Source: Parcubacteria group bacterium
GTDB taxonomy: Bacteria > Patescibacteriota > Patescibacteriia > Magasanikbacterales > GCA-002688135
DNA: 64,000 nucleotides
Direction: 5' to 3'
Assembly: GCA_002688135.1 (NCBI GenBank)
Contig: NZCD01000031.1
Location: forward strand, 4,544-68,543
The notes beneath the pieces were generated by a model. That model made no database searches. It saw only the letters and a program-made list of their open reading frames with translations, and had not been told where the DNA came from. The translations under genes were made by a program, and so were the position numbers. This document shows, piece by piece, positions 11,244 to 64,000 of the stretch (position 1 is the first letter of the stretch; each line of letters opens with the position of its first letter).

Positions 11244-11245
11244 AA

Positions 11246-11265
11246 AGCCCTCCAGTCGGAGGGCT
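11246..11265. terminator. Bidirectional terminator hairpin AGCCCTCC-agtc-GGAGGGCT between convergent genes
   Basis: Perfect 8-bp stem lying between the + gene end (11243) and the - gene end (11271). Confidence 0.7.
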
Positions 11266-11270
11266 CGCGG

Positions 11271-26609: not shown

Positions 26610-26642
26610 CACGCAGTGTCATCCCGGCGCAGGCCGGGATCC
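26606..26642. repeat. Family-C element, half copy (GTGTCATCCCGGC-gcag-GCCGGGATCC)
   Basis: Hairpin TCCCGGC/GCCGGGA with a tetraloop plus a GGATCC site, starting at the stop codon of the upstream gene. Confidence 0.65.
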
Positions 26643-26648
26643 AGTATT

Positions 26649-30154: not shown

Positions 30155-31552
30155 TTAAAACTGATAATAGAGGAAGACTTGTTGTGTGTAGTTCATTAAA
30201 ATTAAACTAACGACAAACAAGAAAGCGAGCAGTATTGCGACGCTTTTTTTGGTTGAGTATTTTATTTCGAATGAGTTTGGCGCGAAGAGTGCAATGAGGG
30301 CACCAACAAAAAGCATGCCAAATAATATAATTTGAGATTCGAGATTCCATGCAGCAGGCATGGTCCAATTATCAAATGAGAACATCGCACGAAGCATGTT
30401 CGTAGAATCACCAAACGTGATGTTGCGGAAAAATACCCAGGAAATCATTACCAAGAAAAGTGTGAGAAATCGGCGGAACCAATAATTAAGTTTGTCATGC
30501 CATGGCTTAATAATCTTCGTCACGCCCAAAAGCGTTCCATGAATTCCACCCCACACAACAAAATTCCACGAAGCGCCATGCCACAAACCACCCAACAACA
30601 TCGTCAGCATCATATTTATAAATGTCCGAACTGTTCCTTTTCGAGAGCCTCCCAAAGGAATATATAAATAATCTTTCAACCACGCAGAAAGCGACATATG
30701 CCAACGCCGCCAAAAATCCTGAATATCAACAGCCTTATATGGCGAATGGAAGTTCTGTGGGAATTTCAAACCGAACAATAAACCAAGTCCAAGTGCCATA
30801 TCCGAATATCCAGAGAAATCAAAATACAATTGAAGTGTGTAACCGATAATCGCTACCCAAGCAGTGAGTGCATATAAATCACCAGTATTAGCAAACAATG
30901 GATTGATGAAATGCGCGATCGTATCAGCGATAATAACCTTCTTCGCCAAACCAACAAGAAACATCGAACCTCCACGATGAAACGATTGTGTGCGACCATG
31001 CTGATCAATATTCTCCAAATCACTATCAATATCAGAAAATCGGACAATCGGCCCGGCGACAAGTTGTGGAAATAGCGAAACATAACATGCAAACTCCATG
31101 AAATTTTTCGTAGGCTTCAATTTCCCACGATACACATCAATCGTGTAACTCATGGTTTGGAAGGTAAAGAACGAAATTCCAACCGGCAAAATGATATCGA
31201 GATTCGGCAAAGTAGGGGAGAGTTGGAATAGCGTAAAGAGTGATTGTAGCGAATCGATCGAGAAATTGAAGTATTTAAAGAATCCCAACATCCCCAAATT
31301 CGCAGCGAGAGAAATCAACAGCACCATCTTCTTTTTCTTCCCCTCATGTTTTGGAATCTGTCGAGCAACGTAAAAATCGATAATCGTAGAAACGAGTAAA
31401 AGTGCAGTAAATCGCCAATCCCAATATCCATAAAAAATATAAGACGCCAAGGTCAACCAAATGTATCGAGGTTGCTTTCCACGCAACATCCAAAAACCAA
31501 GCCATGCGATTGGGAAAAATACAAACAGGAAAATGTAGGAATTGAAAATCAT
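30155..31552 (-). CDS. MBOAT-family membrane-bound O-acyltransferase (AlgI/DltB/PatA-like)
   Basis: WRRWHMSLSAWLKDYLYIPLGG and GLWHGASWNFVVWGGIHG carry the conserved MBOAT His and the surrounding motif. The track ORF runs to 31657 through element C3 (MLISMDPGLRRDD), so the start was placed at the ATG at 31552 (MIFNSYIFLFVFFP...). Confidence 0.8.
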   Translation of the reverse strand: MIFNSYIFLFVFFPIAWLGFWMLRGKQPRYIWLTLASYIFYGYWDWRFTALLLVSTIIDFYVARQIPKHEGKKKKMVLLISLAANLGMLGFFKYFNFSIDSLQSLFTLFQLSPTLPNLDIILPVGISFFTFQTMSYTIDVYRGKLKPTKNFMEFACYVSLFPQLVAGPIVRFSDIDSDLENIDQHGRTQSFHRGGSMFLVGLAKKVIIADTIAHFINPLFANTGDLYALTAWVAIIGYTLQLYFDFSGYSDMALGLGLLFGLKFPQNFHSPYKAVDIQDFWRRWHMSLSAWLKDYLYIPLGGSRKGTVRTFINMMLTMLLGGLWHGASWNFVVWGGIHGTLLGVTKIIKPWHDKLNYWFRRFLTLFLVMISWVFFRNITFGDSTNMLRAMFSFDNWTMPAAWNLESQIILFGMLFVGALIALFAPNSFEIKYSTKKSVAILLAFLFVVSLILMNYTQQVFLYYQF

Positions 31553-31617
31553 AATCGAGAAGCAGGAATTAAGAATTAAGAATACGCTTCGCTTGGCTGT
31601 TACACAGCTTGTAGAAT

Positions 31618-31686
31618 TGTCATCCCGGCGAAGGCCGGGATCCATGCTGATTAGCAAGATGGATCCCGGCCTTCGCCGGGATGACA
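31618..31686. repeat. Family-C element, full palindrome (TGTCATCCCGGCGAAGGCCGGGATCC - 17 nt - GGATCCCGGCCTTCGCCGGGATGACA)
   Basis: Perfect 26-bp inverted arms, each itself a hairpin with a GAAG loop. Creates spurious ORFs on both strands. Confidence 0.8.
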
Positions 31687-51720: not shown

Positions 51721-53163
51721 ATGAAGACTATATTCATGACCATTTCTAGGGGTGGAACCGCACGAAATCTCTTGCAAAGTGAGGTATTTAGTGCGCTCAA
51801 AGAGTCTGGAAACAAACTGGTTATTATTGCACCTGCATCAGAGGATGGGACTTTTCAGAAACTCTGTGATGCTCCAAATATACATCTTGAAAAAATGGTT
51901 GAGCTGCCGTGGCGATGGGCAGATCGAGTTTTGGTAGGGATTCACAAGGGACTAATTTACAATAAGAGCACGATGTTCCGTGATAAGTTCGGAATTTACG
52001 ATCCTAAAGAGGGGAGCATGTTCAAGTACTGGATGCGAAAAATTTTTATTGCGCCATTTTCAAAATCAAAATCTCTCAAAAGATTTGCTAGAAAATTAGA
52101 TAAAGTAATAGCACCCGCACGACACTACGAAGAAATTTTTTCAAAACACAAACCAGACGTTCTTTTTTCGACAAGCATGATTGAAGATCAAGAAGTTGAA
52201 ATCATGAAACAAGCGGAAGCTCATGGTGTGCCAATAATCGCAATGCCAAAAACATGGGACAATCCATCAAAAATAAATCTTCGAGTAAAACCGAATAAGA
52301 TAATTGTGTGGGGAGAATATTCAAGAGATGAGGTGGTAAAATATTCGGCAATAGACGAAAAAGATATTGAGGTGTGCGGAATTCCACAATTCGACACATA
52401 TCGAAATATCGATCTGATTGATACACGCGAAGAATTTTGCACAAAATGGGGATTTGATCCAAACAAAAAAATTATTGTATTTGGATCTGAAGGCCGCATC
52501 ACACCACAAGATAAAGACATCGCCAGTCAGATTGCCGCTTGGGTAAAAAATGGTGGGATTGAAAATTCGCAATTGTTCATACGGCCTCACTTCATGTATC
52601 CGGAAGATCCCAAAAAATTCAAAAACATCGAAGCACAAGAAAATGTAAAAGTTGATAATTCTTGGAATCGAATTGATGGGTTTCGTGACAATTGGGATTA
52701 TTCAATGAAACAAATTTCACATTTCGCAAATCTGATGGTTCATGCGGATCTAATGATAACAACAGGCTCAACACTTTCAATAGACGCAGCTGCAACTGAC
52801 ACGCCAGTCATCAATATATATTTTGACACGCCAGATCCAAAACCATTTAACGAATCTGTGAGACGCTGGTACACATCAGAACATTACTCTCATGTGCTTG
52901 AAACTGGAGCTGTAAGTTTGGCACATTCAATGGAAGAGCTGAAAGAATACACAAAACGATATCTCAAAACACCATCTATCAGACAACAGCAAAGAAAAAA
53001 CTTGATTGAAAAATTTGGATACAAAAACGACGGAAAATCCGCAGAAAGAATCGCAGCTTCTGTTCTTGCGTTTATTGGCGAAGAACCTAAATCTCACACA
53101 CACCATGATTCTGTATTAATAACTAAGAGTGAAAAACAAGAACAGAAAGTAATGAGTAATTAG
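51721..53163 (+). CDS. GT-B-like transferase with RPH motif; TagB/TagF (CDP-glycerol glycerophosphotransferase)-like. Alternative reading: CMP-sugar (sialyl/Kdo)-transferase-like
   Basis: Motif order FGSEGRI ... IRPHFMYPED ... LMITTGSTLSIDAAATDTPVINIYFD mirrors the TagF-family order YAPTWR ... K/RPHP ... ISDYSS..D..LL.KPII. Paralog of the 56029 gene. The last codons lie in element A3. Confidence 0.4.
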   Translation: MKTIFMTISRGGTARNLLQSEVFSALKESGNKLVIIAPASEDGTFQKLCDAPNIHLEKMVELPWRWADRVLVGIHKGLIYNKSTMFRDKFGIYDPKEGSMFKYWMRKIFIAPFSKSKSLKRFARKLDKVIAPARHYEEIFSKHKPDVLFSTSMIEDQEVEIMKQAEAHGVPIIAMPKTWDNPSKINLRVKPNKIIVWGEYSRDEVVKYSAIDEKDIEVCGIPQFDTYRNIDLIDTREEFCTKWGFDPNKKIIVFGSEGRITPQDKDIASQIAAWVKNGGIENSQLFIRPHFMYPEDPKKFKNIEAQENVKVDNSWNRIDGFRDNWDYSMKQISHFANLMVHADLMITTGSTLSIDAAATDTPVINIYFDTPDPKPFNESVRRWYTSEHYSHVLETGAVSLAHSMEELKEYTKRYLKTPSIRQQQRKNLIEKFGYKNDGKSAERIAASVLAFIGEEPKSHTHHDSVLITKSEKQEQKVMSN

Positions 53164-53238
53164 TAATGAGTAAAGCGGTCGGCGAAGCCGACAAAAAGCC
53201 ACAGGCTTTACCTCATTACTAATTACTCATTACGCGCT
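53148..53238. repeat. Family-A hairpin element (AGTAATGAGTAATTAGTAATGAGTAAAGC / GCTTTACCTCATTACTAATTACTCATTAC) with nested GTCGGC-gaa-GCCGAC hairpin
   Basis: ~28-bp near-perfect arms. The inner 57 nt are near-identical (3 mismatches) to the copy at 62575. Overlaps the stop codon of the 51721 gene. Confidence 0.75.
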
Positions 53239-53250
53239 ACTAAATTTTCT

Positions 53251-54639
53251 ATGAAAATTTCACAACTCCGAAAAATCTGCCAAACAAGCTCAAGCTCACC
53301 ATCGGCAGCATCACAAACCATCTGGGGCCAAACCAACAGATTCTTTTCGATATACCTAACTCGACTTTTCATCAACACTAAAGTCACTCCTAACCAAATC
53401 ACTATTTTGGGGTCTGCGGTTTTCATCGCGGGTTGTACACTTTTTGTGTTCGGTACAATGAAGTTCAATCTTATCGGATTTGCAATGGTTGTACTGGCTT
53501 ACATTCTGGATGCATCAGATGGAGAACTTGCTCGCTACAGACGTCATCAAGGTCAAACTTCAAAGTACGATCTCGGAGGAGTATATGTAGAGCCAACATC
53601 ACACGACACACAATACGGATTCATGCTGGTTCCCATGGGATATGGAGCGATGATTGCTACAGGCTCTGCCTTACCATTAGTAGCCGCAGCATTTGCAACA
53701 ATTGGAAAACTCATGTTTCGATTACTGGAATTTCGATACATGGCTGCAGCGCGTCATATCGATGAAATTCAAGGCGCAACATATGGCTGGAAGCAAAACG
53801 TACAAACGCCAACCACACTCACGTATCGACTCTATAGAAATTTCTCAACGGTGTGTGGAATGATGCCACTATTGCTAATTGCTATTCTCGTTGACAGAAT
53901 CGATATATTTTTATATGCTTATGCAGTTCTCTTTATAGTATTATGGGCGGTGAAATTTGATCGAAATGTAGAAAAGATACAAAAAAAGATGCAAAAAAAT
54001 GAGACGACAAATCTGCCCAAAATCATCCTATTTGATTTTGACGGAACACTTGTAGATACTATGCATGGATACGCAGATCTAGCTGCGCAAATAATGCATG
54101 AGGCTCATGGAGCCCCGACAGATGAGGCACGTGATGCATATATGCATACATCAGGATTACCATTTTGTCAGCAACTGGAAGTAATCTATCCTCAAGATGA
54201 AAAGAATACTGGAGCAGCTGAAAGATTTGAAAATGAAAAACTCGAGATTATGTGGGCAGCTAATCCTGATGAGGATTGTGATGAGGTATTGACGAAGCTC
54301 AAAGAAAAAGGAATCACTGCAATCATCTCAAGCAACAACACTCAAGAAAATATTACAGCATATTCGCAAAAACATGCACTGAAAGTAGATGATGCGCTCG
54401 GTTACAAAGAAGGATTTGCAAAAGGCCGAGATCACGTCGAACACATAAAAGAAAAGTATAATGTATCTGAATCAGACTTATGGTTTATCGGAGATTCTTT
54501 CGCAGACGGAAAAAAAGCCCACGCACTAAACATCAACTTCATCGCTCGAACAGGAACAAATTCAGCAGACGCATTCTTAGAAAAATTTCCAAATATACAA
54601 ACTATCGATTCTCTAAGCGAGCTACTCAAACTTTTATGA
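53251..54639 (+). CDS. Fusion protein: N-terminal CDP-alcohol phosphatidyltransferase-family membrane domain + C-terminal HAD-superfamily phosphatase
   Basis: N-terminal half: ~6 TM helices with DASDGELARYRR, which fits the D-G-x2-A-R CDP-OH phosphotransferase motif. C-terminal half: ILFDFDGTLVDT (HAD motif I, DxDGT), ISSNNTQ (motif II) and GDSFADGKK (motifs III/IV). Confidence 0.65.
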   Translation: MKISQLRKICQTSSSSPSAASQTIWGQTNRFFSIYLTRLFINTKVTPNQITILGSAVFIAGCTLFVFGTMKFNLIGFAMVVLAYILDASDGELARYRRHQGQTSKYDLGGVYVEPTSHDTQYGFMLVPMGYGAMIATGSALPLVAAAFATIGKLMFRLLEFRYMAAARHIDEIQGATYGWKQNVQTPTTLTYRLYRNFSTVCGMMPLLLIAILVDRIDIFLYAYAVLFIVLWAVKFDRNVEKIQKKMQKNETTNLPKIILFDFDGTLVDTMHGYADLAAQIMHEAHGAPTDEARDAYMHTSGLPFCQQLEVIYPQDEKNTGAAERFENEKLEIMWAANPDEDCDEVLTKLKEKGITAIISSNNTQENITAYSQKHALKVDDALGYKEGFAKGRDHVEHIKEKYNVSESDLWFIGDSFADGKKAHALNINFIARTGTNSADAFLEKFPNIQTIDSLSELLKLL

Positions 54640-55874
54640 ATCACGAGAATAAAAAACGAAAAATCTGTGTCACCCTAATCAACCGCGCAAATTACGGTCG
54701 ATTAAAATCAGTGATGACAGCCATAAAAAATCATCCAGACTTGGAACTCCAGGTTATTTGTGGTTCAGCAATGTTGATTTACAATTATGGAAATGCGATA
54801 GATGTGGTTGAGCGTGACGGCTTTAAAGTTGACGAGAAAATCTTCATGCACGTTGCCGGTGAGACACCCATGACGATGGCAAAGTCAGTTGGAATGGGAA
54901 TGATAGAATTCCCTGCAGCATATGACAGATTAAAACCAGATATTGTAATGGTGAATGCAGATCGATATGAAACATTGGCTATTGCAGCATCAGCATCATA
55001 TATGAACATTCCAGTAGCACATCAGTTGGGTGGAGAATGCACAGGAACTATCGATGACTATGTCAGGCATGCAGTAACAAAACTTTCAGATATTCATTTT
55101 GCAGCTCACACAAAAGCAGCAGAACGCGTCGTTATGATGGGAGAGGATCCATCACGAGTATACGTCACAGGAAATCCGTCACTAGATGTTATTCATGAAT
55201 CACAATCAAATGTCACGAATCAACAATTCTGGGAGAAGTATGGAGGAAAAGGTGGTGGTGTAAATATTGATGAACCATTCTTACTCTCAATTTTCCATCC
55301 CGTTACAACTGATTACGGAAAAAACCGCACAAATGCAGAAGCACTCTTAAGCGCAGTTGATGAGTTAGAAATTCCAACAATCATGCTCTGGCCAAACAAT
55401 GACGCAGGGTCAGATGAAATTGCAAAAGCAATGCGTGTGAGATTCGATCAGGGAAACATGGAAAACCTTCACTTCATCAGAAACCTAGCTATTGAAGATT
55501 ACCTAACTCTCATGGCACGCTCATCTGCTGTGATCGGAAACTCATCATCAGGAATTATGGAAGCAGGATTTTTAGGAGTTCCATGTGTAAACATCGGAAA
55601 CAGACAAGAGGGGCGCGAGCAAACTCACAATGTAATCAATGTAGAACCAAATAAAGAAAAGATAATCGAGGCAATCAAACAATCAATTGAAAAGAAATCA
55701 TATCCAAAAGACCCGCTATTTGGTGATGGAAAATCAGGAAAACGAATCGCAGACATTCTCGCAACAATCCCACTAATGCGACCAAAGATTTATTTTGAAG
55801 CTTCAGATGAGACGAAGAAGAGTTACGTAGATCTTGTTGAACGTGAAGTGAAGCAACGAATGACAACGGAGTAA
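54636..55874 (+). CDS. UDP-N-acetylglucosamine 2-epimerase, hydrolysing type (NeuC/LegG-like)
   Basis: KICVTLINRANYGRLKSVMTAI; QLGGECTGTIDDYVRHAVTKLSDIHF matches the NeuC G-G-E-x-T-x-G...D...RHAITKLS.LHF block. The start ATG overlaps the upstream TGA (ATGA), so the track start 54480 was trimmed. Confidence 0.7.
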   Translation: MNHENKKRKICVTLINRANYGRLKSVMTAIKNHPDLELQVICGSAMLIYNYGNAIDVVERDGFKVDEKIFMHVAGETPMTMAKSVGMGMIEFPAAYDRLKPDIVMVNADRYETLAIAASASYMNIPVAHQLGGECTGTIDDYVRHAVTKLSDIHFAAHTKAAERVVMMGEDPSRVYVTGNPSLDVIHESQSNVTNQQFWEKYGGKGGGVNIDEPFLLSIFHPVTTDYGKNRTNAEALLSAVDELEIPTIMLWPNNDAGSDEIAKAMRVRFDQGNMENLHFIRNLAIEDYLTLMARSSAVIGNSSSGIMEAGFLGVPCVNIGNRQEGREQTHNVINVEPNKEKIIEAIKQSIEKKSYPKDPLFGDGKSGKRIADILATIPLMRPKIYFEASDETKKSYVDLVEREVKQRMTTE

Positions 55875-55989
55875 ATAGAAGAGCTGCTTTTGAGAACGCA
55901 GTGCTCAAAAGCGTTACTATAAAACGAAAAAGGTTTGGTGGGAATAATATAGAATGGCTGCGATGGTATAGGAGGATCAATACTAATAC

Positions 55990-56017
55990 GGGATCCCTCC
56001 TATTGTCGGGATGACGT
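55990..56017. repeat. Family-C half element (GGGATCCCTCCTATTGTCGGGATGACG)
   Basis: GGATCC plus the GGGATGAC core, preceded by an ATAGGAGG...CCTCCTAT short inverted repeat. The track ORF start at 56011 lies inside it. Confidence 0.5.
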
Positions 56018-56028
56018 GGAACGAAGTT

Positions 56029-57402
56029 ATGAAAAAAATCTTCATGATGTTATCGCGCGGATTCGTCGCGCGCAACATGCTTCAAACTGAAGTAAAAAAA
56101 ACAATACTCGAGCAAGAGGATGTACAACTCATCCTCTTTGTTCCATCTAACATTCCTGATCACTTTCACAAAGAGGCAAATCATCCGCGCATCACAACAA
56201 TAGAATGTGAGGATGTGCAGTATGGTCCATTGCGTCGTAGATTCGCGCGATCAATGCAAAAGATGGTGTATTCAAAAACTGCGCAATATCTATTGCATTA
56301 TGGTGGCCGTCCATCAAAGAAGAATATGTCGTGGCCGTTTTTTATTGTTGCACATGGATTCTTCAAATTACTCTCATCAATGAAATTCTTTATTCCAGTC
56401 TGGAGATGGCTGGAGATCGCGACATGGCCAGACAAAATATATGATGAGCATTTCAAAGAACATAAACCAGATTTGGTAATTGCGACAAGTCTTAAAACAA
56501 AACGAGATGCAGCTATTTTGAAATCTGCAAAACGATTCAATGTGAAACCGATTGGTATCACACGAAGCTGGGATAATTTGGATCGAATGTTATTGCAAGT
56601 TGTGCCAGACAAGTTGGTAGTACAAAATGAGGCAATGAAAGAAATTGCAATAAAAGATCATGCGATAGATGAGAAAACTATTTTTGTTGCAGGATTCCCG
56701 CAGTTTGATTTGTATGATAATTCAGAAACATTCGACGACTACGAAACATTTCTAGAAAAAAGAAATTTCACGCCAGATCGAAAAGTCATATTCTTTGGTT
56801 CTGAAGGAGCATGGGCGCCGTATGGATACATGATTGCACAGGAGCTGATCGATATGGCAAACAAGGATGAATTTGTGCATCCAGTTCAGGTGATTGTGAG
56901 ACCGCACTTTTCAGATATTAACTTTGACAAAAAAAATGTATATGACGTAGTTGAGGGTAGACCGCTCACATATTACGACAATTACTTCCGTGTCTCAAAA
57001 ATGTTTACCGACAAATGGGACCCTTCATGGGAGGAAATGACAAACCTCGCAAACCAACTCAAGCATTCAGATATGCTCATCACATACGCCTCGACATTGT
57101 CACTAGAAGCAGCTATACTCGATACACCAATAATCAATATCGATTATCAGGCAAGACAAGAACCAAAAGGTGGACCATTCATGGGAACATTCTACCAATC
57201 CAGTCACTATTCTAGAATGGCAAACTCTGGAGCAATCAAATTTGCGCATTCACGAAATGAATTGAAAGCGCTCGTAAATCGATATCTTGAAAATCCAGAA
57301 TACGAAAAAACAGAACGAAAAAAATTCGCAAACTGGCTTGCGCCTTACACAGGAGAGGCTGGAAAGAGACTTGGCGACTTTATTATTCAACAGCTGTCGT
57401 AA
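56029..57402 (+). CDS. GT-B-like transferase with RPH motif, paralog of the 51721 protein (TagF-like)
   Basis: FFGSEGAW ... VIVRPHFSD ... MLITYASTLSLEAAILDTPIINIDYQ. The N-terminus MKKIFMMLSRGFVARNMLQTEV parallels MKTIFMTISRGGTARNLLQSEV of the paralog. Confidence 0.4.
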   Translation: MKKIFMMLSRGFVARNMLQTEVKKTILEQEDVQLILFVPSNIPDHFHKEANHPRITTIECEDVQYGPLRRRFARSMQKMVYSKTAQYLLHYGGRPSKKNMSWPFFIVAHGFFKLLSSMKFFIPVWRWLEIATWPDKIYDEHFKEHKPDLVIATSLKTKRDAAILKSAKRFNVKPIGITRSWDNLDRMLLQVVPDKLVVQNEAMKEIAIKDHAIDEKTIFVAGFPQFDLYDNSETFDDYETFLEKRNFTPDRKVIFFGSEGAWAPYGYMIAQELIDMANKDEFVHPVQVIVRPHFSDINFDKKNVYDVVEGRPLTYYDNYFRVSKMFTDKWDPSWEEMTNLANQLKHSDMLITYASTLSLEAAILDTPIINIDYQARQEPKGGPFMGTFYQSSHYSRMANSGAIKFAHSRNELKALVNRYLENPEYEKTERKKFANWLAPYTGEAGKRLGDFIIQQLS

Positions 57403-57476: not shown

Positions 57477-58601
57477 ATGAAACTAGCAATTGTCTTGGGA
57501 ACAAGACCAGAAATAATCAAAATGGCACCAATTGTAAACGCATGCAAAAAAATGAATGTGGATTTTTTCATTTTGCATACTGGGCAGCATTACTCTGAAA
57601 ACATGGATTCAGTATTTTTCAAGGATTTGGAGCTGCCACAGCCGGATTACAATTTAGGAGTGGGGAATCAACCACATCGCAAACAAGTTGGGTTGATGAC
57701 ACGTCACATGCTCGAGGTATTCAAACAAGAAAAGCCAGATGTGGTGATTGTTCAAGGTGATACAATTTCAGTATTGTCTGGAACGCTCGCTGCAAAACGT
57801 CTGGGAATAAAAGTTGCACATCATGAAGCGGGACTACGAAGTCACGATCCATCGATGATTGAAGAAACTAATCGAGTAACCACAGATCATTTATCAGACT
57901 TTCTATTTGCACCAACAAAAGAAGCAACAAAAAATTTAGTAGAAGAAGGATACACAAGTGATCGAATTTTTGAAACAGGAAACACGATTGTTGATGCAGT
58001 TTTATACGCTAAAGATTTAGCAGAAAAAAAATCGAAGATTCTAGAGAAATTAGACCTTGTTAAAGGTAAATACGTTCTGATCACAGCTCATAGAAGTGAA
58101 AACGTAGATAAACGAACAAACCTCAAGGACATGATTCGCGGGATCGAATCAACAGCTGCATCATATCCAGAATTAACCTTCGTATATTCAATGCATCCTC
58201 GCACAAAGAAAATGATCGACCGTTTTGGACTTAATATGCCGCAGCACATGAAAATCATCGAACCAGTTTCATTTCTAGATTTTCTACAACTTGAAACACA
58301 CGCACGACTCATCATGACAGACTCAGGAGGCTTACAAGAAGAAGCCTGTATTTTAAAAGTTCCGTGTGTAACGATGCGCCTAAACACAGAACGTCCAGAA
58401 ACAGTTCGATTAGGAATAAATACATTAGCTGGAACACACCCCGATATGATCCGAGCAAAAGTAAAAGAAATGATGTCAAAAGATAATATCGAATGGAAAA
58501 ATCCATTTGGAGACGGAAAAGCAGCAGAACATATTTTGGAGATATTAGAAAAAGAAATGCAAACTCAACCTGAAAAGGTTGCAGAGTTGACAAATCAATA
58601 A
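57477..58601 (+). CDS. wecB: UDP-N-acetylglucosamine 2-epimerase (non-hydrolysing)
   Basis: MKLAIVLGTRPEIIKMAPIV; HHEAGLRS; MTDSGGLQEEA; 374 aa. These are canonical WecB/MnaA motifs. Confidence 0.9.
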   Translation: MKLAIVLGTRPEIIKMAPIVNACKKMNVDFFILHTGQHYSENMDSVFFKDLELPQPDYNLGVGNQPHRKQVGLMTRHMLEVFKQEKPDVVIVQGDTISVLSGTLAAKRLGIKVAHHEAGLRSHDPSMIEETNRVTTDHLSDFLFAPTKEATKNLVEEGYTSDRIFETGNTIVDAVLYAKDLAEKKSKILEKLDLVKGKYVLITAHRSENVDKRTNLKDMIRGIESTAASYPELTFVYSMHPRTKKMIDRFGLNMPQHMKIIEPVSFLDFLQLETHARLIMTDSGGLQEEACILKVPCVTMRLNTERPETVRLGINTLAGTHPDMIRAKVKEMMSKDNIEWKNPFGDGKAAEHILEILEKEMQTQPEKVAELTNQ

Positions 58602-58637: not shown

Positions 58638-59615
58638 ATGCAAAACGATTACTACAAAGGAAAAAGGGTTTTAGTCACTGGCGCAGACGGCTTCATGGGG
58701 TCACATCTCGTGGACGCATTATTAGCGCAGGGAGCTGAAGTTTCTGTGTTTGTGCGCGGAAATTCTGTAACAGGCACCAACATTAATCAGTTAAAAAATC
58801 TGTCACACGCAGAAGGTAAGCTCAATAAGGTGATAGGTGGTGATGTAGGAAATCCCGATACGATTTCGCTCATTAAAAACAGCGCACCAGAAATCGTTTT
58901 TCATTTAGCAGCTGACGCATACGTTCCAAAGTCTTTCGAGCAGCCTCTTGAGGTTTGGCAGACAAATGCTACGGGGACGTTGCATGTGCTTGAAGGAGCT
59001 CGTGCATGTGGTGCACAACGCATAGTCTGCACATCAAGTTCAGAGGTATATGGGCATTGTGCTGGGTCAATTGATGAGCTTACGGAAATGCGGCCAACAT
59101 CAATCTATGGAGCCTCAAAATGTGCCGCAGATAGAGTAGCGTTCGCACATCACACACAGTTCGGTACACCAGTTGCAATTGTGAGACCGTTCAATACGTA
59201 TGGCCCCCGACATACATATGATGTAATCCCGTACTTCATTAAACTAGCGTTTGATGGAAAAGATCTGACAGTTCATGGAGATGGAACACAAACTCGCGAC
59301 TTTACCTATGTTGATGACACGGTCCGGGGATTCCTTATCATGGGAGAACATCCAGATGCAGTTGGAAGAGCTGTGAATTTTGGAACTGGTACTGACACAA
59401 CAGTAAATGAAATCGCAGTGGCAATTCAAAAACATACCGGAACAGGAATCGGAATTATCCACGGAGAAGCTCGTATGGCAGAAGTTCAAAAAATGCGCAG
59501 CAACCCAGGACTTGCAAAAGAACTGTTTGGATGGGAGGCACAAGTAAGTATTGATGAAGGAATTCGTCGAAACGTAGAACACGTGAGAGCAGCACAGAGG
59601 GTTGTTGCCGTATAA
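58638..59615 (+). CDS. NAD(P)-dependent sugar-nucleotide 4,6-dehydratase/epimerase (extended SDR; Gmd/RfbB-like)
   Basis: VLVTGADGFMGSHLV; TSSSEVYG; YGASK (YxxxK). The N-terminal layout is loosely GDP-mannose-4,6-dehydratase-like. Because fcl is present in the locus a Gmd would be expected, but the specificity is unproven. Confidence 0.7.
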   Translation: MQNDYYKGKRVLVTGADGFMGSHLVDALLAQGAEVSVFVRGNSVTGTNINQLKNLSHAEGKLNKVIGGDVGNPDTISLIKNSAPEIVFHLAADAYVPKSFEQPLEVWQTNATGTLHVLEGARACGAQRIVCTSSSEVYGHCAGSIDELTEMRPTSIYGASKCAADRVAFAHHTQFGTPVAIVRPFNTYGPRHTYDVIPYFIKLAFDGKDLTVHGDGTQTRDFTYVDDTVRGFLIMGEHPDAVGRAVNFGTGTDTTVNEIAVAIQKHTGTGIGIIHGEARMAEVQKMRSNPGLAKELFGWEAQVSIDEGIRRNVEHVRAAQRVVAV

Positions 59616-59780
59616 TCTTTGTGATAAAACTTTCAAGTTTCGGGGTATAATCGATGAACACTTGATGAGATATAAGCCGTAGCTTAGTCGAAGAAAGTTG
59701 AGTCGATTATAACCGAAAATTGAATTTTTTAGCCGAAGACTTATATGGAAAGAGCCCTCATAAAAGGAAAAGGTAGTCGT

Positions 59781-60389
59781 ATGATTAAGGAGAGAGTAAA
59801 GCTTCATCCTACTGCTGAAATCGGCGAAGGTGTCGAGATTGGTGATGGTACTAAAATTTGGGCGCAAGCACAGCTCGGCGCAGGCGCTCGACTGGGTGCT
59901 AATTGCGTAGTTGGAAAAGGAGCATACATTGATCGCGGAGTAAGAGTTGGAAATAATGTTATGATTCACAATTATGCATTATTGTACCGGCCGCTTACGG
60001 TGGAAGACAATGTGTTCATCGGACCACAAGTTGCAAATGCAAACGACCCAACCCCTATCGCAAACGTAATTCGCGACACTGCTAAGGATCCGGGTACGAC
60101 TTTCAAAAAAGGATGTCGTATCGGCATGGGCGCAACACTTGCACCAAATCTGACCATTGGCGAATACGCACAAGTAGACATGCGAGCACTCGTAACTCGA
60201 GATGTTCCGCCTCATGCTATTGTGAGAGGTGTGCCTGCAAAGATTGTCGGCTTCGCATGCTTTTGTGGAAAGAAGTTGGGGAAACATCCTGAAATTCAAA
60301 TGGGCGCAAGCATCCATCATAGATGTGCTGACAGCAGCTGTGCTAAAACAGTAACAATCCCACTTGAAAACTACAAAAGAATGAAATAA
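59781..60389 (+). CDS. Hexapeptide-repeat (LbH) acetyl/acyltransferase (PglD/NeuD/WbbJ-like)
   Basis: Hexapeptide repeats IGDGTKIWAQAQLGAGARLGANCVVGKGAYIDRGVRVGNNVMI. The track start (59745) was trimmed to MIKERVKL. Confidence 0.65.
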   Translation: MIKERVKLHPTAEIGEGVEIGDGTKIWAQAQLGAGARLGANCVVGKGAYIDRGVRVGNNVMIHNYALLYRPLTVEDNVFIGPQVANANDPTPIANVIRDTAKDPGTTFKKGCRIGMGATLAPNLTIGEYAQVDMRALVTRDVPPHAIVRGVPAKIVGFACFCGKKLGKHPEIQMGASIHHRCADSSCAKTVTIPLENYKRMK

Positions 60390-60444: not shown

Positions 60445-61602
60445 ATGACCTTAGAAGGAGTCACTACGAAAGTAGCAGATAGAACAAAGAGTGTTTCTTT
60501 GGTGAAAGATTGGATTCTACATTCCGGAATCCAAAACCAAAGCGAAAATAAAAAATTACACGGTGCATTTAATGCGTGGCATGACATCACAAACAACACC
60601 TATCCATACATGTATTCAGAAATCACAGGATATGGATTATCAACTCTCGCGCACATCGCAGCAGAATTTGGTGATAATGAATTGATCAGACAAAAAATTA
60701 CAGATGCGCATGTGTGGCTGCGGGATGTTGCATTGCATGAAAGTGGAGGAGTGAGAACACGAGATTACTATCCCGGAAGCTCTGCATACAACGAACACTT
60801 CGATTTCAAAAATGAAACACTCTATACATTCGATACCGGAATGGTATTGAATGGATTGATGTCAGCATACAATCTAACAAAAGACGAAACACTTTTAGAG
60901 ACGGCAAAAAAGAATGCAGACTTTCTGCTAAAAGCACAAAAAGAAGATGGATCAATCTACGCATATTGGGAAGCTCATAAAGATGAATGGGTAGACAGAC
61001 CAGAAAAATGGTCGTCACAAAGCGGGGCTTATCATGCAAAATGTGCTATCGGATTATATGCATTGGGGAAAGTTGCAGAAAACAAAAGCTGCATAGAAGC
61101 AGCGCTGAAGCTGTGTGAATACGCACTTACACTCCAACATGAAGACGGACGATTCGTTTCATTCCGCGAAACAACAAACACAGAGCTTCATCCACACACA
61201 TACACAATTGAGGGATTGATGTATGTTGCGCAGCAAGAAAATAATCAAAAATACAAAGAGGCTTGTAATCGAGCAATAGAATGGAGTTTCACCTTGCAGC
61301 GATCCAAAGGTGGAGTATCAAGGAGTGTGCACAATAACACTCCAAACGATAATGAAAGGGTAGACGTACTCGCACAAACACTGCGGATGGGAGCTGTCTT
61401 AAATCAATCAGAAGAAAAGCTTCAAAAACTAGAAAAGCAATTATCCTCATACCAAACAGAGGGCTTCATATACGGTTTTGATAATGATGGAAACAAGTTA
61501 TCTCACACAAATGCATGGGTTTCAATGTTCGCCATTCAGGCATTTTCATGCAGAAAAACGCAGGAAAAAGGCGAAAAAATCGATCTGATCAATCTCATCT
61601 AA
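60445..61602 (+). CDS. Hypothetical protein, probably (alpha/alpha)6-toroid fold (N-acylglucosamine 2-epimerase / six-hairpin glycosidase superfamily-like)
   Basis: 385 aa of helix-rich repeats of ~50 aa with aromatic/Gly turns (SEITGYGLSTL, DTGMVLNGLMSAY, TIEGLMYVAQ). No NeuB or TIM-barrel motifs. Low confidence. Confidence 0.3.
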   Translation: MTLEGVTTKVADRTKSVSLVKDWILHSGIQNQSENKKLHGAFNAWHDITNNTYPYMYSEITGYGLSTLAHIAAEFGDNELIRQKITDAHVWLRDVALHESGGVRTRDYYPGSSAYNEHFDFKNETLYTFDTGMVLNGLMSAYNLTKDETLLETAKKNADFLLKAQKEDGSIYAYWEAHKDEWVDRPEKWSSQSGAYHAKCAIGLYALGKVAENKSCIEAALKLCEYALTLQHEDGRFVSFRETTNTELHPHTYTIEGLMYVAQQENNQKYKEACNRAIEWSFTLQRSKGGVSRSVHNNTPNDNERVDVLAQTLRMGAVLNQSEEKLQKLEKQLSSYQTEGFIYGFDNDGNKLSHTNAWVSMFAIQAFSCRKTQEKGEKIDLINLI

Positions 61603-61726: not shown

Positions 61727-61835
61727 TTTCCGAATGCATTCAGGTATCCTCACAGCAACCTTGACAAAAGGCCGCAAAAAAAGTAGCATAACCGAAATAC
61801 TTGATACTTTATTCTTAATACTTGATACGTATTTC

Positions 61836-62579
61836 ATGTACAAAAATAAGCGATTTTTCGCGGTGATTCCAGCCAGAGGAGGATCAAAAGGAATACCTCG
61901 AAAAAACATCAAAGAGTGTGCTGGAAAGCCACTCATACAATGGACGATCGAAGCAGCAAAAAAATCTGCACTGCTCGATCGTTTTGTTGTTTCTACAGAT
62001 GATGAGGAGATTGGGAGAATTGCAACTGCGTGTGGCGCGGATATGCCGTTTGTACGACCAGAAGAATTATCTACAGATTCAGCCCGCGGAATCGATGTAG
62101 CAGCTCATGCGCTGCAATGGGCAAATGAAGAAAGTGGACCATATGATTATTGTCTCATCCTACAACCCACTTCGCCGCTTCGAAGCGTTGAAGACATTGA
62201 TGAATGCATACGCAAAGCAGTAGATACGAATGCGGATTCAGTGATGAGCATGTATGAAATTTCTGACATGTCGCCACGAAAGTTCAAGAGAATTGTGAAC
62301 GATAAAATTCTACCCATGGCAGCGGATGAAGGCGCAACAACTGCAGATCGACACGACAGCGAACCAATTTACAAACGAAATTGCGCGGTGTATCTCACGA
62401 AAGCAGAAGTAATGCTGCGCGGTGAATTGTTTGGCGATGACTCTCGTCCATACATCATGCCAGCAGACCGCTCAATCGACATTAACGAAACGTTGGATTT
62501 CAAGTTTGCCGAATTTCTGTTAAGCGAGCGGAGATCTAAGAAAGGTGCTGATCAACAGCAAGTAAAGAGTAAAGCGTAA
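61836..62579 (+). CDS. Acylneuraminate cytidylyltransferase family (CTP_transf_3; NeuA/PseF/KdsB-like) nucleotidyltransferase
   Basis: FFAVIPARGGSKGIPRKNIKECAGKPLIQW is the hallmark N-terminal motif of CMP-NeuAc/CMP-Kdo synthetase-type enzymes. The track start (61734) was trimmed to MYKNKRFFAVIP. Confidence 0.8.
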   Translation: MYKNKRFFAVIPARGGSKGIPRKNIKECAGKPLIQWTIEAAKKSALLDRFVVSTDDEEIGRIATACGADMPFVRPEELSTDSARGIDVAAHALQWANEESGPYDYCLILQPTSPLRSVEDIDECIRKAVDTNADSVMSMYEISDMSPRKFKRIVNDKILPMAADEGATTADRHDSEPIYKRNCAVYLTKAEVMLRGELFGDDSRPYIMPADRSIDINETLDFKFAEFLLSERRSKKGADQQQVKSKA

Positions 62580-62650
62580 TGAGTAAAGCGGTCGGCGAAG
62601 CCGACAAAAAGCCGTAGGCTTTCCCTCATTACGCTTTACTCATTACGCGT
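62561..62650. repeat. Family-A hairpin element, near-identical core to the 53148 copy
   Basis: GTAATGAGTAAAGCGGTCGGCGAAGCCGACAAAAAGCCGTAGGCTTTCCCTCATTAC. Overlaps the stop codon of the 61836 gene. Confidence 0.75.
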
Positions 62651-62660
62651 CACTAATTTT

Positions 62661-64000
62661 ATGAAAATAGTAATTACCGAGTCAAAAGACTACTCAAAGG
62701 AAGCAATCGATCTGTATGGTTCGATGGGCAATGTTGTGGTATGTAATAATCTCACACGTGCGGAATTTCTAAATATAACACAGGATGCAAAGCTTGTTGT
62801 GGTTCGTCTGGATCACACGCTAGATAGAGAATTTTTTGAAAATGCAAAAGAATTGAAAGCAATTGGAACGCCAACAACAGGTCTCGATCATATTGATAAA
62901 GATGCAGCAAAAAAACATGGAGTAAATATATATTCACTTCGTGGCGAACAAGCATACCTCGAATCAATTGCAGCAACGCCAGAGCACACTCTTGCACTCT
63001 TACTCTCTTTACTGCGAAGAGTACCAGCAGCACATAAACATGTGATGGAAGGTGGGTGGAACAGAAATTTATTTAAGGGGCATGAGATCAAAGGGTCAAC
63101 AATTGGTATTTACGGATTCGGAAGAGTCGCGCGATTATTCGCAAGTTATGTGCATAATATGGGAGCGAAAGTAACTGCTTTTGATCCCTATGTAGATAAA
63201 CGTGTGATGGAAGATCATGATGTTATGTGGGTTGAGCGAGATGAGCTTTTCAAGCAGAGCAATATTTTGATGATTCACGCACTACTTACACCACAAACCA
63301 AAAACTCAATTGGTGAAAAAGAATTAGCCTTACTTCCACAAGGAGCATTTATCGTAAATACAGCGAGAGGACAAATCATTGAGGAAAAAGCACTTGTTGA
63401 AAGATTGCATCTCAAGAGCATAGCGGGGATCGCAGTTGATGTGTTAGCAGACGAACGCGATGATGGAGATTGGTTCAAAACAAGCTTGTTACACGAATAT
63501 GCCAAGCATCACGAAAATGCTATCATTACGCCTCACATTGCAGGAGCAACATACGACTCAATGGAATCAACAGAAAATTTTATTGCCAAAAAATGCATCA
63601 GATTTATGACAGGTAAAAACACAGAACAGGACAATAAACACTTTGACGATAAATGGATGGAAGCAATCACAAAACGAAAGGGACAGGAATTTTCCCTGTA
63701 TGTACCTGAAGATGAGAAACCAAAAACACAAAGACAATTCAACTTGCATAACTATATGGAATTCATCGGAAAGCAAGTGAAGGGCAGGGGTTTTACATCA
63801 TCGCTTGAGCTCGGCGCAGGGCGCGGGACAATTTCGCTATATTTGAAAAAAAGATTTGGATTCGATGTCACACTTAACGATGTTTCAGATAATGCGATGG
63901 AACTCGCGCGTGCAAACTTTCAATACTTCAATGAATCAGCAGAATTTCAAGTTGGTGACGCTGCAACACTTCCATTTCCAGATAACTCTTTTGATGTTGT
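62661..64000 (+). CDS. Fusion: D-isomer-specific 2-hydroxyacid dehydrogenase (N) + class-I SAM methyltransferase (C), 3' partial (runs off the window)
   Basis: Translated manually; the ORF is absent from the track because there is no stop in the window. GIYGFGRVARLF (GxGxxG NAD site), NTARG and PHIAG are D-2-hydroxyacid-dehydrogenase motifs. After aa ~330, LELGAGRGTISLYL and LPFPDNSFDV are methyltransferase motifs I and post-I. Confidence 0.7.
   Translation, partial: MKIVITESKDYSKEAIDLYGSMGNVVVCNNLTRAEFLNITQDAKLVVVRLDHTLDREFFENAKELKAIGTPTTGLDHIDKDAAKKHGVNIYSLRGEQAYLESIAATPEHTLALLLSLLRRVPAAHKHVMEGGWNRNLFKGHEIKGSTIGIYGFGRVARLFASYVHNMGAKVTAFDPYVDKRVMEDHDVMWVERDELFKQSNILMIHALLTPQTKNSIGEKELALLPQGAFIVNTARGQIIEEKALVERLHLKSIAGIAVDVLADERDDGDWFKTSLLHEYAKHHENAIITPHIAGATYDSMESTENFIAKKCIRFMTGKNTEQDNKHFDDKWMEAITKRKGQEFSLYVPEDEKPKTQRQFNLHNYMEFIGKQVKGRGFTSSLELGAGRGTISLYLKKRFGFDVTLNDVSDNAMELARANFQYFNESAEFQVGDAATLPFPDNSFDV

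Follow-up and report, generated by a model that had tools for sequence, protein, structure and literature searches.

In this study, we investigated a gene at the end of a 64-kb stretch of DNA from a Parcubacteria group bacterium (the whole 64,000 nucleotides being called the window here), together with its neighbours in a glycan island of about 50 kb and its relatives in other assemblies. The gene joins a dehydrogenase to a methyltransferase, and the features around it are collected in Table 1.

Table 1. Features of the fusion gene and its surroundings in the window.
Feature	Position	Strand	Remarks
Second BFO_1060-family / TIGR04396-like putative ulosonic-acid transferase	51721..53163	+	
HAD phosphatase-like domain fused to a weak CDP-alcohol-phosphatidyltransferase-like N-terminus	53251..54639	+	
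NeuC-type hydrolysing UDP-GlcNAc 2-epimerase	54480..55874	+	TIGR03568 396 bits, cut-off 236
BFO_1060-family / TagF-like putative ulosonic-acid transferase	56011..57402	+	homologous to C-terminal domain of P0015, E 7e-78
WecB 2-epimerase	57477-58601	+	syntenic in L001 and L006
LegB-like SDR dehydratase/epimerase	58638-59615	+	syntenic in L001 and L006
NeuD-like hexapeptide acetyltransferase	59745-60389	+	syntenic in L001 and L006
385-aa (alpha/alpha)6-toroid-like protein	60445-61602	+	syntenic in L001 and L006
PseF/NeuA-like cytidylyltransferase (CTP_transf_3)	61734..62579	+	directly upstream of the fusion ORF
Intergenic palindromic heptad-repeat element	62580..62660	.	ends just before the ATG
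Dehydrogenase-methyltransferase fusion ORF	62661..64000	+	446 codons in the window; full protein about 616 aa; stop about 510 nt past the window end
NAD-dependent D-2-hydroxyacid-dehydrogenase-family domain	62661..63626	+	aa 1-322
Short variable linker, then conserved N-terminal methyltransferase cap	63627..63803	+	cap HF..W.EA..K.KGQEF.L.V...P.TQRQFNL.NY
Start of class-I SAM methyltransferase Rossmann core	63804..64000	+	motif I LELGAGRGT, acidic D407, DNSFDV; truncated by window end

The product of the gene before the fusion matches CTP_transf_3 with 85.6 bits, above the Pfam cut-off, and its best NCBIfam match is PseF (TIGR03584, 158 bits vs a cut-off of 205.7); because of this neighbouring cytidylyltransferase, the first-pass annotation was right to speak of a CMP-sugar-type operon. 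A second cytidylyltransferase copy follows the fusion ORF in the syntenic relative L001, which also carries three copies of the palindromic heptad-repeat element; another copy of this element lies at about 53140-53250 of the window. The two BFO_1060-like paralogs (46 and 69 bits vs a cut-off of 200) form one homologous group with the C-terminal domain of P0015, a fused relative described below. The NeuC-type gene probably starts about 60 codons downstream of its listed ATG, and the HAD phosphatase-like fusion gene is kept in gammaproteobacterial relatives (Gammaproteobacteria being the label of the NCBI MAG record). Neither phmmer searches (two NeuB queries, one DegT query) nor Pfam scans of the ORFs between 13.5 and 64 kb detected a NeuB or DegT gene in the window. 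A NeuB/PseI/LegI-type synthase had no match in the 64-kb window, L001, L004 or L006, and neither a NeuB-type synthase nor an aminotransferase was found in the 64-kb window plus about 10 kb, for the window and its close relatives. An Rfam scan of the window gave no match, and a scan for promoters and terminators around the fusion gene gave nothing above shuffled expectation.

It had been proposed from the letters of the DNA that an uninterrupted ORF of at least 446 aa begins at the ATG at 62661, and translation bears this out, with 446 codons free of stops up to the window end. This ATG is the first start after an in-frame stop, and the N-terminus (MKIVITES..) aligns with those of all homologs. 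The missing C-terminus was supplied by a metagenomic fragment (P0009) that is 100% identical over a 221-aa overlap and extends the protein to 616 aa. The same in-frame fusion was recovered from ENA, Logan and NCBI assemblies as ORFs of 590-624 aa (P0001-P0008) and is also present in loci L002-L006; altogether it is kept in nine sequences with 54-77% identity, eight of them from other assemblies, and the linker/cap motif is invariant. The two domains are annotated apart solely in L001, because a run of ten Ns falls in the junction (L001 9969-9979). A stop or frameshift between the domains, which the earlier reading had named as a possible flaw, is thus out, as is an assembly artefact, since independent assemblies carry the fusion in frame. 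The ORF encodes a genuine bifunctional two-domain enzyme of about 616 aa, an NAD-dependent 2-hydroxyacid dehydrogenase (2HADH) joined to a SAM methyltransferase.

The N-terminal part was read in the first pass as a D-2-hydroxyacid dehydrogenase, and all the motifs quoted for it are present, namely GIYGFGRVARLF at aa 148-159, NTARG at 233-237 and PHIAG at 291-295. Both Pfam families of the superfamily score above their gathering cut-offs, with 159.9 bits for 2-Hacid_dh_C (PF02826; cut-off 25.1, E 5e-47, aa 111-294) and 57.2 bits for 2-Hacid_dh (PF00389; cut-off 24.6, E 2e-15, aa 4-321). The Rossmann motif G152-F-G154-R-V-A157 and the acidic D175 ('AFD') are invariant across the nine fusions, from which the domain probably prefers NAD. 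The catalytic triad of R236 (NTARG), E265 (DVLADE) and H292 (TPHIAG) aligns with the structures 1wwk and 3ddn and is invariant in the clade. As in phosphoglycerate dehydrogenase (PGDH), R49 and W133-x-R135 are present and align with R51 and R132 of the Mycobacterium tuberculosis enzyme, which presumably bind the substrate phosphate. The substrate loop, G69-TPTTGLDHID, is PdxB-like, and a five-residue insertion with a conserved SL(R/K)GE is specific to the clade.

With respect to known families, the best sequence matches are type III SerA PGDHs (Pyrococcus horikoshii 1WWK, at 135 bits; M. tuberculosis 3DDN/1YGY; human PHGDH), with which the domain shares the two-lobe 2HADH architecture, the acidic NAD motif, the catalytic Arg/Glu/His and the two arginines. 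It differs from them in falling far below the SerA equivalog cut-offs (209 bits vs 454 for TIGR01327, its best NCBIfam match, and 154 vs 404 for NF008759), in having GTPTTGLDH in place of the SerA-type loop R-A-G-x-G-x-D-N ('ARAGVGxDN'), in the SL(R/K)GE insertion, and in lacking both the ACT/ASB domains and any link to serC/serB, its C-terminus being a methyltransferase instead. PdxB (erythronate-4-phosphate dehydrogenase; 3OET, 5DT9, 2O4C) is a 2HADH of the same superfamily that oxidises a phosphorylated sugar acid, 4-phosphoerythronate, at C2. The resemblance to PdxB is limited to the in-register loop GT-x-T-x-G-x-DH-[IV]-D and the N-terminus, whereas overall identity is only 26% (E 6e-13), the PdxB cut-offs are far away (95.5 bits vs 434 for NF001309, 53.7 vs 687 for NF011966), and PdxB has an alignment gap at the W-x-R segment that SerA and our domain possess. 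PdxB, unlike our enzyme, also has its own C-terminal dimerisation domain and serves vitamin B6 synthesis rather than glycan loci. The suggested classification as PGDH, GDH or LDH-D clade gave none of the three, as the domain scores below every NCBIfam equivalog cut-off and its loop is PdxB-like rather than SerA-like. Its motifs show a catalytically complete NAD-type member of the 2HADH superfamily that forms a distinct and widespread clade, SerA-like overall with a PdxB-like loop, and this loop suggests a polyhydroxy sugar acid as the substrate.

The methyltransferase part of the window runs from about aa 366 to aa 446, and the class-I motifs that had been named for it, LELGAGRGTISLYL at aa 382-395 and DNSFD at aa 441-445, were found. 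Even as the fragment cut by the window end (aa 382-446), it passes the gathering scores of Methyltransf_25/11 (E 6e-13 / 2e-11), and the Methyltransf_11/25 scores rise from 49.7 and 44.7 bits for this fragment to 82.3 and 76.9 bits for the completed domain (Methyltransf_11 E 4e-23). An AF2 model of the 95%-identical P0017 displays a seven-stranded Rossmann-like fold with a core pLDDT above 90, and Foldseek matched it to many SAM-methyltransferase structures with probability 1.00. The C-terminal domain is accordingly shown to be a class-I SAM methyltransferase. The methyl acceptor could not be diagnosed by the PDB sequence search, the AF2 model or Foldseek; the nearest structures, at similar scores, include N-methyltransferases (PMT), a C-methyltransferase (TleD), sugar O-methyltransferases (AtmM, RebM) and a carboxyl methyltransferase (LahSB). 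The N-terminal cap also occurs in stand-alone orthologs of the domain, which are normally separate genes within the same cassettes and sometimes follow the dehydrogenase gene directly (L032, L077, L083, L089 and L090).

The dehydrogenase clade is spread over Gammaproteobacteria, Bacteroidota, Desulfobacterota, Chloroflexota, Patescibacteria and Asgard archaea, in at least 278 metagenomic loci. A census was made of 85 non-redundant loci, with denominators that vary with the availability of adequate flanks, and the context in these 85 loci is exclusively glycan biosynthesis. A CTP_transf_3 gene lies within 300 bp of the dehydrogenase in 44 of 61 loci and within 3 kb in 29 of the 33 loci with adequate flanks. 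NeuB or NeuC is found within 5 kb in 22/28 loci, and a NeuB-like synthase, always under the NeuB/PseI cut-offs, adjoins the dehydrogenase in 19/28; five loci whose flanks reach 8 kb or more in each direction, one of them the syntenic relative of the window, are without NeuB. Half of the loci that could be scored (12/24) have a BFO-like transferase within 10 kb, 11/24 have an ortholog of the methyltransferase within the same distance, and a DegT aminotransferase is present in only 5/23. AsnB-family genes are often directly downstream. Genes for acyl-activating enzymes (acyl-CoA/ACP ligases), carrier proteins or dedicated acyltransferases do not accompany the dehydrogenase in any conserved way. 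Annotated examples are the order NeuB-NeuC-CTP-DH in Flavobacterium amniphilum (DH being the dehydrogenase, MT the methyltransferase and CTP the cytidylyltransferase) and NeuB-NeuC-MT-[CTP::DH] followed by KpsC/S-like genes elsewhere, and the minimal gammaproteobacterial locus (NCBI MAG label), L004, consists only of CTP, DH::MT, a transferase, AsnB and EamA. Apart from the fusion studied here, the dehydrogenase is fused to the cytidylyltransferase in P0115 and to a BFO_1060-type transferase in P0015, and the methyltransferase is fused to AsnB in P0121 and to the cytidylyltransferase in P0173. A passing remark in a Leptospira paper describes a NeuB of Leptospira santarosai with a 'phosphoglycerate dehydrogenase domain', and this was the only relevant statement found in the dehydrogenase and sialic-acid-synthase literature, where no characterisation of the clade was met with. 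The NeuB-like, PseF-like and BFO_1060-like partners all score under their curated family cut-offs, which means that the sugar is none of the textbook ones (sialic, legionaminic or pseudaminic acid). The analysis shows that the clade is functionally coupled to the putative CMP-activating enzyme.

We consider it rather probable, from gene content and fusions, that the two-domain enzyme is part of a module which tailors a 2-ulosonic (nonulosonic, sialic-acid-like) sugar and activates it with CMP, the sugar serving to decorate the surface glycan of the island. Since the family almost always adjoins the presumed CMP-activating enzyme, its most likely task is the tailoring of a sialic-acid-like surface sugar by a reaction that nobody has yet described. 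The adjacency and the fusions to the CMP-ulosonic-acid synthetase, the BFO_1060-type transferase and NeuB argue that the ulosonic sugar acid, or the compound directly before it, is what the dehydrogenase acts on. The canonical chemistry of 2HADH enzymes is NAD(H)-dependent and takes place at C2 of a 2-hydroxy or 2-keto acid, yielding or consuming a D-2-hydroxy acid. The dehydrogenase would then use NAD(H) to oxidise or reduce the free sugar acid, or the acid that immediately precedes it, at the alpha-hydroxy/alpha-keto-acid end, the only position that would fit this chemistry; the methyltransferase would methylate the same molecule, the dedicated cytidylyltransferase next door would form the CMP-sugar, and the BFO_1060-like enzymes would transfer it. 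The fusion itself would have arisen in a particular lineage, when two tailoring genes that lay side by side were joined. It counts against this proposal that CMP activation of an ulosonic acid requires C2 as the anomeric centre, so that a simple reduction there is incompatible with glycosyl transfer. Other points against it are that the window and its close relatives are devoid of a NeuB-type synthase and an aminotransferase, and that the best matches are PGDHs whose anion-binding arginines are retained; this similarity would agree as well with a small substrate of the phospho- or dicarboxylic acid type.

Among systems already described, EpaA/EpaB of Acinetobacter baumannii prophages, which convert Pse5Ac7Ac to 8-epi-Pse5Ac7Ac and in which an oxidoreductase is fused to a dedicated CTP_transf_3, resemble the cytidylyltransferase-dehydrogenase fusion of P0115 and the strict adjacency of the two genes, by analogy only. 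EpaA has a reductase of the aldo-keto type and EpaB belongs to the SDRs, folds other than that of 2HADH, and they have no methyltransferase; their function is backed by NMR of the capsule. The EpaA-type architecture is not matched in the window, where the dehydrogenase is fused to the methyltransferase and the cytidylyltransferase gene is separate. The nonulosonic acid loci of Tannerella forsythia (Pse5Am7Gra or a legionaminic acid derivative) share with the window the logic of CMP activation and probably the kind of transferase (BFO_1060 family). BFO_1060 (Tanf_01245-type) is genetically implicated as a transferase of a legionaminic-acid derivative, though the two window transferases match its model only weakly, and the loci offer a chemical precedent for unusual substituents, both N-acyl and methyl, to which no genes have been assigned. 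They are described with a complete Pse or Leg pathway and with no 2HADH gene, such a gene having no mention in the T. forsythia papers, whereas the window has neither synthase nor aminotransferase. In the 2HADH classification of Matelska et al. 2018 (the 2HADH knowledgebase), the domain falls clearly within the superfamily; the text does not refer to sialic or neuraminic acid, cytidylyltransferase, polysaccharide or methyltransferase contexts, and the glycan role of the clade appears not to have been noted there.

The first-pass annotation suggested instead the synthesis of a methylated glycerate- or lactate-type substituent. On that view, the dehydrogenase would reduce hydroxypyruvate, phosphohydroxypyruvate or pyruvate to D-glycerate or D-lactate, the methyltransferase would O-methylate the product, and the result would become an N-acyl, O-acyl or phospho-linked substituent on a CMP-sugar or glycan. 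We regard this as unlikely, in spite of the domain's best family and structure matches, which are PGDHs and glyoxylate/hydroxypyruvate reductases, and of the aligned phosphate-site arginines. Precedents exist in N-glyceroyl and di-O-methylglyceroyl pseudaminic acids: the genetic basis of glyceroyl-substituted nonulosonic acids was stated as unknown in 2017, and a review mentions that pseudaminic acid of Campylobacter can be modified with di-O-methylglyceric acid. The frequent AsnB-family neighbours, one of them fused to the methyltransferase (P0121), are carboxylate-adenylating enzymes and might appear to serve such a purpose, but they are intact glutamine-hydrolysing amidotransferases (TIGR01536 418 bits; GATase domains) and so are expected to deliver ammonia rather than to couple an acid with the amine of a sugar. 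The comparative evidence does not support the substituent, as no acyl machinery is conserved, the aminotransferase that would provide a free amine is rare, and the dehydrogenase is tied by its fusions to a cytidylyltransferase and a glycosyl-type transferase instead of acyl-handling enzymes. The substrate loop is also not GhrB-like, any more than it is SerA-like, and the description of the Pse5Am7Gra locus of T. forsythia names no homolog of the dehydrogenase.

Less probable still is a route without a synthase. Here the dehydrogenase would turn an aldonic-type sugar acid, which may be phosphorylated, into a 2-ulosonic acid by oxidation at C2; the cytidylyltransferase would capture this acid directly and the methyltransferase would methylate it. 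The clade would then create the ulosonic acid and not decorate it, and the fusion and cytidylyltransferase of window-like lineages would lead in a new way, with no synthase, to a methylated ulosonic sugar activated by CMP, which we hold to be quite improbable. No other reaction agrees at once with canonical 2HADH chemistry and with the strict coupling and fusion to the cytidylyltransferase, and the PdxB-like loop and N-terminus, being in register, are in favour of this route, as is the minimal cassette of L004. Since NeuB is missing from the glycan island of the window, as from the five loci with long flanks, such a route may be kept in consideration for these genomes; a NeuB could nevertheless sit elsewhere in incomplete MAGs. 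In the 19 of 28 loci where a NeuB-like synthase adjoins the dehydrogenase, NeuB already yields the 2-keto acid, so the dehydrogenase cannot generally be the ulosonate-forming step. No glycan is known to us in which a CMP-activated hexulosonic or nonulosonic acid that is not 3-deoxy comes from the oxidation of an aldonic acid.

The idea of a housekeeping PGDH of serine biosynthesis lying beside, or artefactually joined to, an unrelated methyltransferase has a top NCBIfam match to PGDH, the JGI automatic name 'D-3-phosphoglycerate dehydrogenase' of many clade members and one relative annotated as two genes to recommend it, but is effectively refuted and most improbable in view of the SerA scores and missing ACT/ASB domain, the exclusive glycan context, and in-frame fusions from different samples and lineages, the split being due to the gap of Ns. 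Since there are PGDH-like phosphonopyruvate reductases, a phosphonate (PepM-linked) route was also weighed by analogy, and was rejected on finding no PEP-mutase family in the annotated neighbour loci.

Sialic-acid-like sugars shape how bacterial and archaeal surfaces are displayed to hosts, phages and immune systems, and the enzymes that diversify them are largely unknown. This study reveals that a 2HADH clade automatically annotated as 'phosphoglycerate dehydrogenase' is a conserved and uncharacterised part of sialic-acid-like sugar cassettes, which corrects a systematic mis-annotation, and that in one marine lineage it has been fused with the methyltransferase of the cassette. If the synthase-independent reading were true, these genes would represent a previously unknown route to a CMP-activated methylated ulosonic sugar. 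One polypeptide and one neighbouring gene make a compact target for finding a new sugar-acid modification or route.

On the + strand, translation of the gene under study (DH::MT) gave 446 codons free of stops, as the first-pass annotation had claimed, and all the motifs quoted there were found in the frame. Pfam placed 2-Hacid_dh at residues 4-321, 2-Hacid_dh_C at 111-294 (E 5e-47) and Methyltransf_25/11 at 382-446, the last cut by the window end, in keeping with the assigned N-terminal dehydrogenase (DH) and C-terminal SAM methyltransferase (MT). The missing C-terminus was taken from P0009, a metagenomic fragment of the TARA_039 mesopelagic sample with 100% identity over 221 overlapping residues, giving a 616-aa protein; rather than failing methyltransferase models, the completed domain matched Methyltransf_11 at E 4e-23. 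The AlphaFold model of P0017, a 95% identical protein used as structural model, displays a class-I Rossmann core with pLDDT above 90 and matched many SAM methyltransferase structures. With the full C-terminus, the MT call can be regarded as solid.

Among ENA, Logan and NCBI assemblies, a search for homologous fusions disclosed eight more proteins of full length with the same architecture (590-624 aa; 54-77% identical), and the linker/cap motif HF..W.EA..K.KGQEF.L.V...P.TQRQFNL.NY is invariant among the fusion proteins. No stop or frameshift separates the domains. The sole split case is the syntenic relative L001 (GCA_964536205.1), annotated with a 312-aa DH, which has no Pfam hit on the public record, and a 300-aa MT (P0017); since ten N bases lie exactly at the junction (ENF[N10]AKKCIRFMTG), inside the gene, the split is an artefact of assembly and annotation. 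In the reference-genome collection the fusion was found only in three MAGs labelled 'uncultured Gammaproteobacteria', and an exhaustive MT-domain search of 1.84 billion representative proteins yielded no more than 23 clusters at E ≤ 1e-30, the majority being stand-alone proteins of ~270 aa. The fusion is real, and its domain architecture is new.

The best DH matches were short (type III) phosphoglycerate dehydrogenases (1wwk, 135 bits; TIGR01327, 209 bits), and DH fell far under every cut-off of the NCBIfam equivalogs for PGDH, glyoxylate reductase, D-LDH, PdxB, GhrA/B and FDH. DH retains the catalytic residues Arg236, Glu265 and His292 as well as the NAD motif, including D175. In the alignment, R51 and R132 of PGDH correspond to Arg49 and Trp133-x-Arg135. 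Where SerA has the loop ARAGVGLDN, DH has GTPTTGLDH, in register with GTATAG(T/M)DH of solved erythronate-4-phosphate dehydrogenases (PdxB). This loop, together with a five-residue insertion carrying a conserved SL(R/K)GE, is common to the ~40 stand-alone homologs inspected. Since the matches are SerA-like overall and the substrate loop PdxB-like, DH is assigned to a distinct clade.

The surroundings of DH were compared in 12 genome loci, 80 metagenome loci and four Pfam-annotated contigs (85 non-redundant) by phmmer, with the window's own proteins plus NeuB, DegT and others from annotated loci as queries; denominators are loci with adequate flanks for the given distance. A PseF/NeuA-like cytidylyltransferase (CTP_transf_3) was observed within 300 bp of DH in 44 of 61 loci and within 3 kb in 29 of 33. 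Within 5 kb, 19 of 28 loci harbor the sialic-acid-type synthase NeuB, 13 harbor NeuC and 22 one or the other; within 10 kb, BFO_1060-like transferases occur in 12/24, orthologs of the fused MT in 11/24, AsnB in 6/24 and the aminotransferase DegT in 5/23. The MT ortholog lies directly 3' of DH, as in the fusion, in L032, L077, L083, L089 and L090, and AsnB often takes that place (L028, L058, L060, L080, L084). Typical orders are NeuB-NeuC-CTP-DH (for example in Flavobacterium amniphilum), CTP-DH-NeuB' and CTP-DH-MT-NeuB', and hosts include Gammaproteobacteria, Flavobacteriia, Desulfarculaceae, Chloroflexia, Phycisphaerae, Saccharibacteria/Parcubacteria and Promethearchaeota. All NeuB-like and PseF-like partners are under the curated Neu5Ac/Pse cut-offs, so the sugar is probably other than textbook sialic, legionaminic or pseudaminic acid. 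The recurrent NeuB' subfamily beside DH (N-terminus IAEFCQNHNGD, no SAF domain, conserved tail NRDYYRGRFAS) reaches only ~160 bits with the NeuB model, whose cut-off is 400, and because its loci are usually without NeuC, its aldose substrate is probably different. In Patescibacteria-type loci, the DH cassette has at its flanks between one and three large proteins that combine a CotH (kinase-like) domain with NosD/beta-helix domains, and in L020 genes for VTC and inositol-1-phosphate synthase flank it as well; this suggests a phosphorylated surface polymer.

Further fusions were observed: CTP_transf_3::DH (P0115), DH::BFO-like transferase (P0015) and, with the same or a related methyltransferase, AsnB::MT (P0121, 864 aa) and, more weakly, CTP_transf_3::MT (P0173, 527 aa). 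The AsnB::MT fusion and AsnB downstream of DH hint at a carboxylate or amide on the sugar as common target. In locus L019, two KpsC/S-like (Kdo-transferase-like) genes follow the CTP::DH gene. A published remark notes that in Leptospira santarosai a sialic acid synthase carries a phosphoglycerate dehydrogenase domain, and BFO_1060 of T. forsythia is genetically implicated in legionaminic acid derivative transfer. Judged by this context and these fusions, DH and MT belong to the module that activates, tailors and transfers a CMP-ulosonic acid.

From ~13.5 kb on, the window is one large surface-glycan island with a Wzy/O-antigen-ligase-like protein, many GT1, GT2 and GT4 glycosyltransferases, PMT_2 proteins, AsnB, MBOAT, formyltransferase, deacetylase, several methyltransferases and a Wzx flippase. 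Its last 12 kb run BFO_1060-like transferase, HAD fusion protein, NeuC (above its curated cut-off), second BFO_1060-like transferase, WecB, LegB-like SDR, NeuD-like acetyltransferase, (alpha/alpha)6-like protein, PseF-like cytidylyltransferase and DH::MT, after which L001 continues with a second cytidylyltransferase, another methyltransferase and an EamA transporter. Neither NeuB-type synthase nor DegT was detectable in window 1-64000 or the fusion loci L001, L004 and L006, though NeuC, WecB, the SDR, the acetyltransferase, cytidylyltransferases and BFO_1060-like transferases are present; a synthase encoded in another part of the genome, scavenging of the sugar acid or a different way of making it would each account for this.

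Several neighbours were also recorded. The (alpha/alpha)6-like protein weakly matches toroid families (GH127, GH88, pectate lyase, squalene cyclase, glucuronyl C5-epimerase C-terminus); of the loci examined, only L001 and L006, both close and syntenic relatives, have a detectable homolog, placed between the acetyltransferase and the cytidylyltransferase. The domain pair of the HAD fusion protein recalls a CDP-alcohol transfer with subsequent dephosphorylation, and because the protein overlaps the listed NeuC start by 160 nt, the true start is probably further downstream. The window MBOAT strongly resembles the one next to DH in F. amniphilum and, though 31 kb off, may belong to the same modification system. 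A conserved intergenic element of ~100 nt runs from direct heptads (GTAAnGn) through the core GGTCGGCGAAGCCGAC-AAAAAGCC..AGGCTTTCCCTC, holding two small hairpins, to inverted heptads (ATTACnC), and ends a few bases ahead of the next ATG; two copies of its 16-nt core are present in the window where 0.01 would be expected by chance, and the element resembles a palindrome of REP/MITE-like or regulatory type.

Positions of the features discussed, in the window and in compared loci
Feature	Locus	Position	Remark
DH::MT	window	62661-64000 (+)	runs off window
Intergenic element	window	53140-53250; 62565-62660
Intergenic element	L001	2780-2900; 8945-9050; 14860-14995
10-N run	L001 (CAZHVT010000005.1)	9969-9979	DH/MT junction
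Double GT4	window	18708-21026	772 aa; unusual multi-domain glycan enzyme
Methyltransferase::GT2	window	25143-26609	488 aa; likewise
GT2::PMT_2	window	26616-28841	741 aa; likewise
MBOAT O-acyltransferase, membrane	window	30155-31657 (-)	E 9e-82 to L018 MBOAT
MBOAT	L018 (F. amniphilum)	11046-12479	immediately 3' of DH
HAD fusion protein	window	53251-54639	462 aa; weak CDP-alcohol-phosphatidyltransferase-like N-terminus (aa 36-102) + HAD phosphatase
Match of P0015 C-terminal domain	window	55987-57399	E 7e-78
(alpha/alpha)6-like protein	window	60445-61602	385 aa
NeuB'	L089	11701-12708
NeuB'	L100	1786-2757
NeuB'	L074	11076-12062
NeuB'	L012	8217-9245
NeuB'	L010	10929-11915
CotH flanking of DH cassette	L020	12332-18619
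CotH flanking of DH cassette	L021	7404-10004
CotH flanking of DH cassette	L017	13621-16320
CotH flanking of DH cassette	L023
CotH flanking of DH cassette	L024

What the domains are, that their motifs for catalysis and cofactor binding are intact and that they belong to the module is established. Beyond this, we infer that DH would act in an NAD(H)-dependent manner on the free sugar acid, or on an acid precursor of it, before the dedicated cytidylyltransferase next to it makes the CMP-activated form; the same molecule would be methylated by MT and finally transferred by BFO_1060-like enzymes. EpaA/EpaB, an oxidoreductase fused to a dedicated cytidylyltransferase that makes 8-epi-pseudaminic acid, is a precedent for such a fusion in nonulosonic acid tailoring. 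The first-pass annotation had instead proposed a methylated glycerate- or lactate-type substituent made by DH and MT. DH does have PGDH-like features, and N-glyceroyl and di-O-methylglyceroyl pseudaminic acids exist, their responsible genes being unknown as of 2017. However, the conserved module holds no acyl-activation or acyl-transfer component, an aminotransferase occurs in few loci (DegT, 5/23), the AsnB partners are ordinary glutamine-dependent amidotransferases and the fusion partners are nucleotidyl- and glycosyl-type transferases, and we consider this substituent unlikely.

Canonical 2-hydroxyacid dehydrogenase chemistry takes place at C2 of a 2-hydroxy or 2-keto acid, and C2 of an ulosonic acid is the anomeric carbon, which is the chemical weak point of the proposed DH step and leaves three options. 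The clade may have drifted to another hydroxyl, or a precursor, or else a second carboxylate end, may be its target. That DH itself generates the 2-keto group by converting an aldonic acid, in the manner of PdxB, would account for the loci that have no NeuB (L001/window, L013, L020, L021), but it cannot apply generally because most loci have NeuB, and it seems very improbable. Literature searches found no published characterisation of the clade in ulosonic acid loci, and its members are publicly annotated as 'D-3-phosphoglycerate dehydrogenase' or 'NAD(P)-dependent oxidoreductase'; they are uncharacterised enzymes inside a known kind of pathway.
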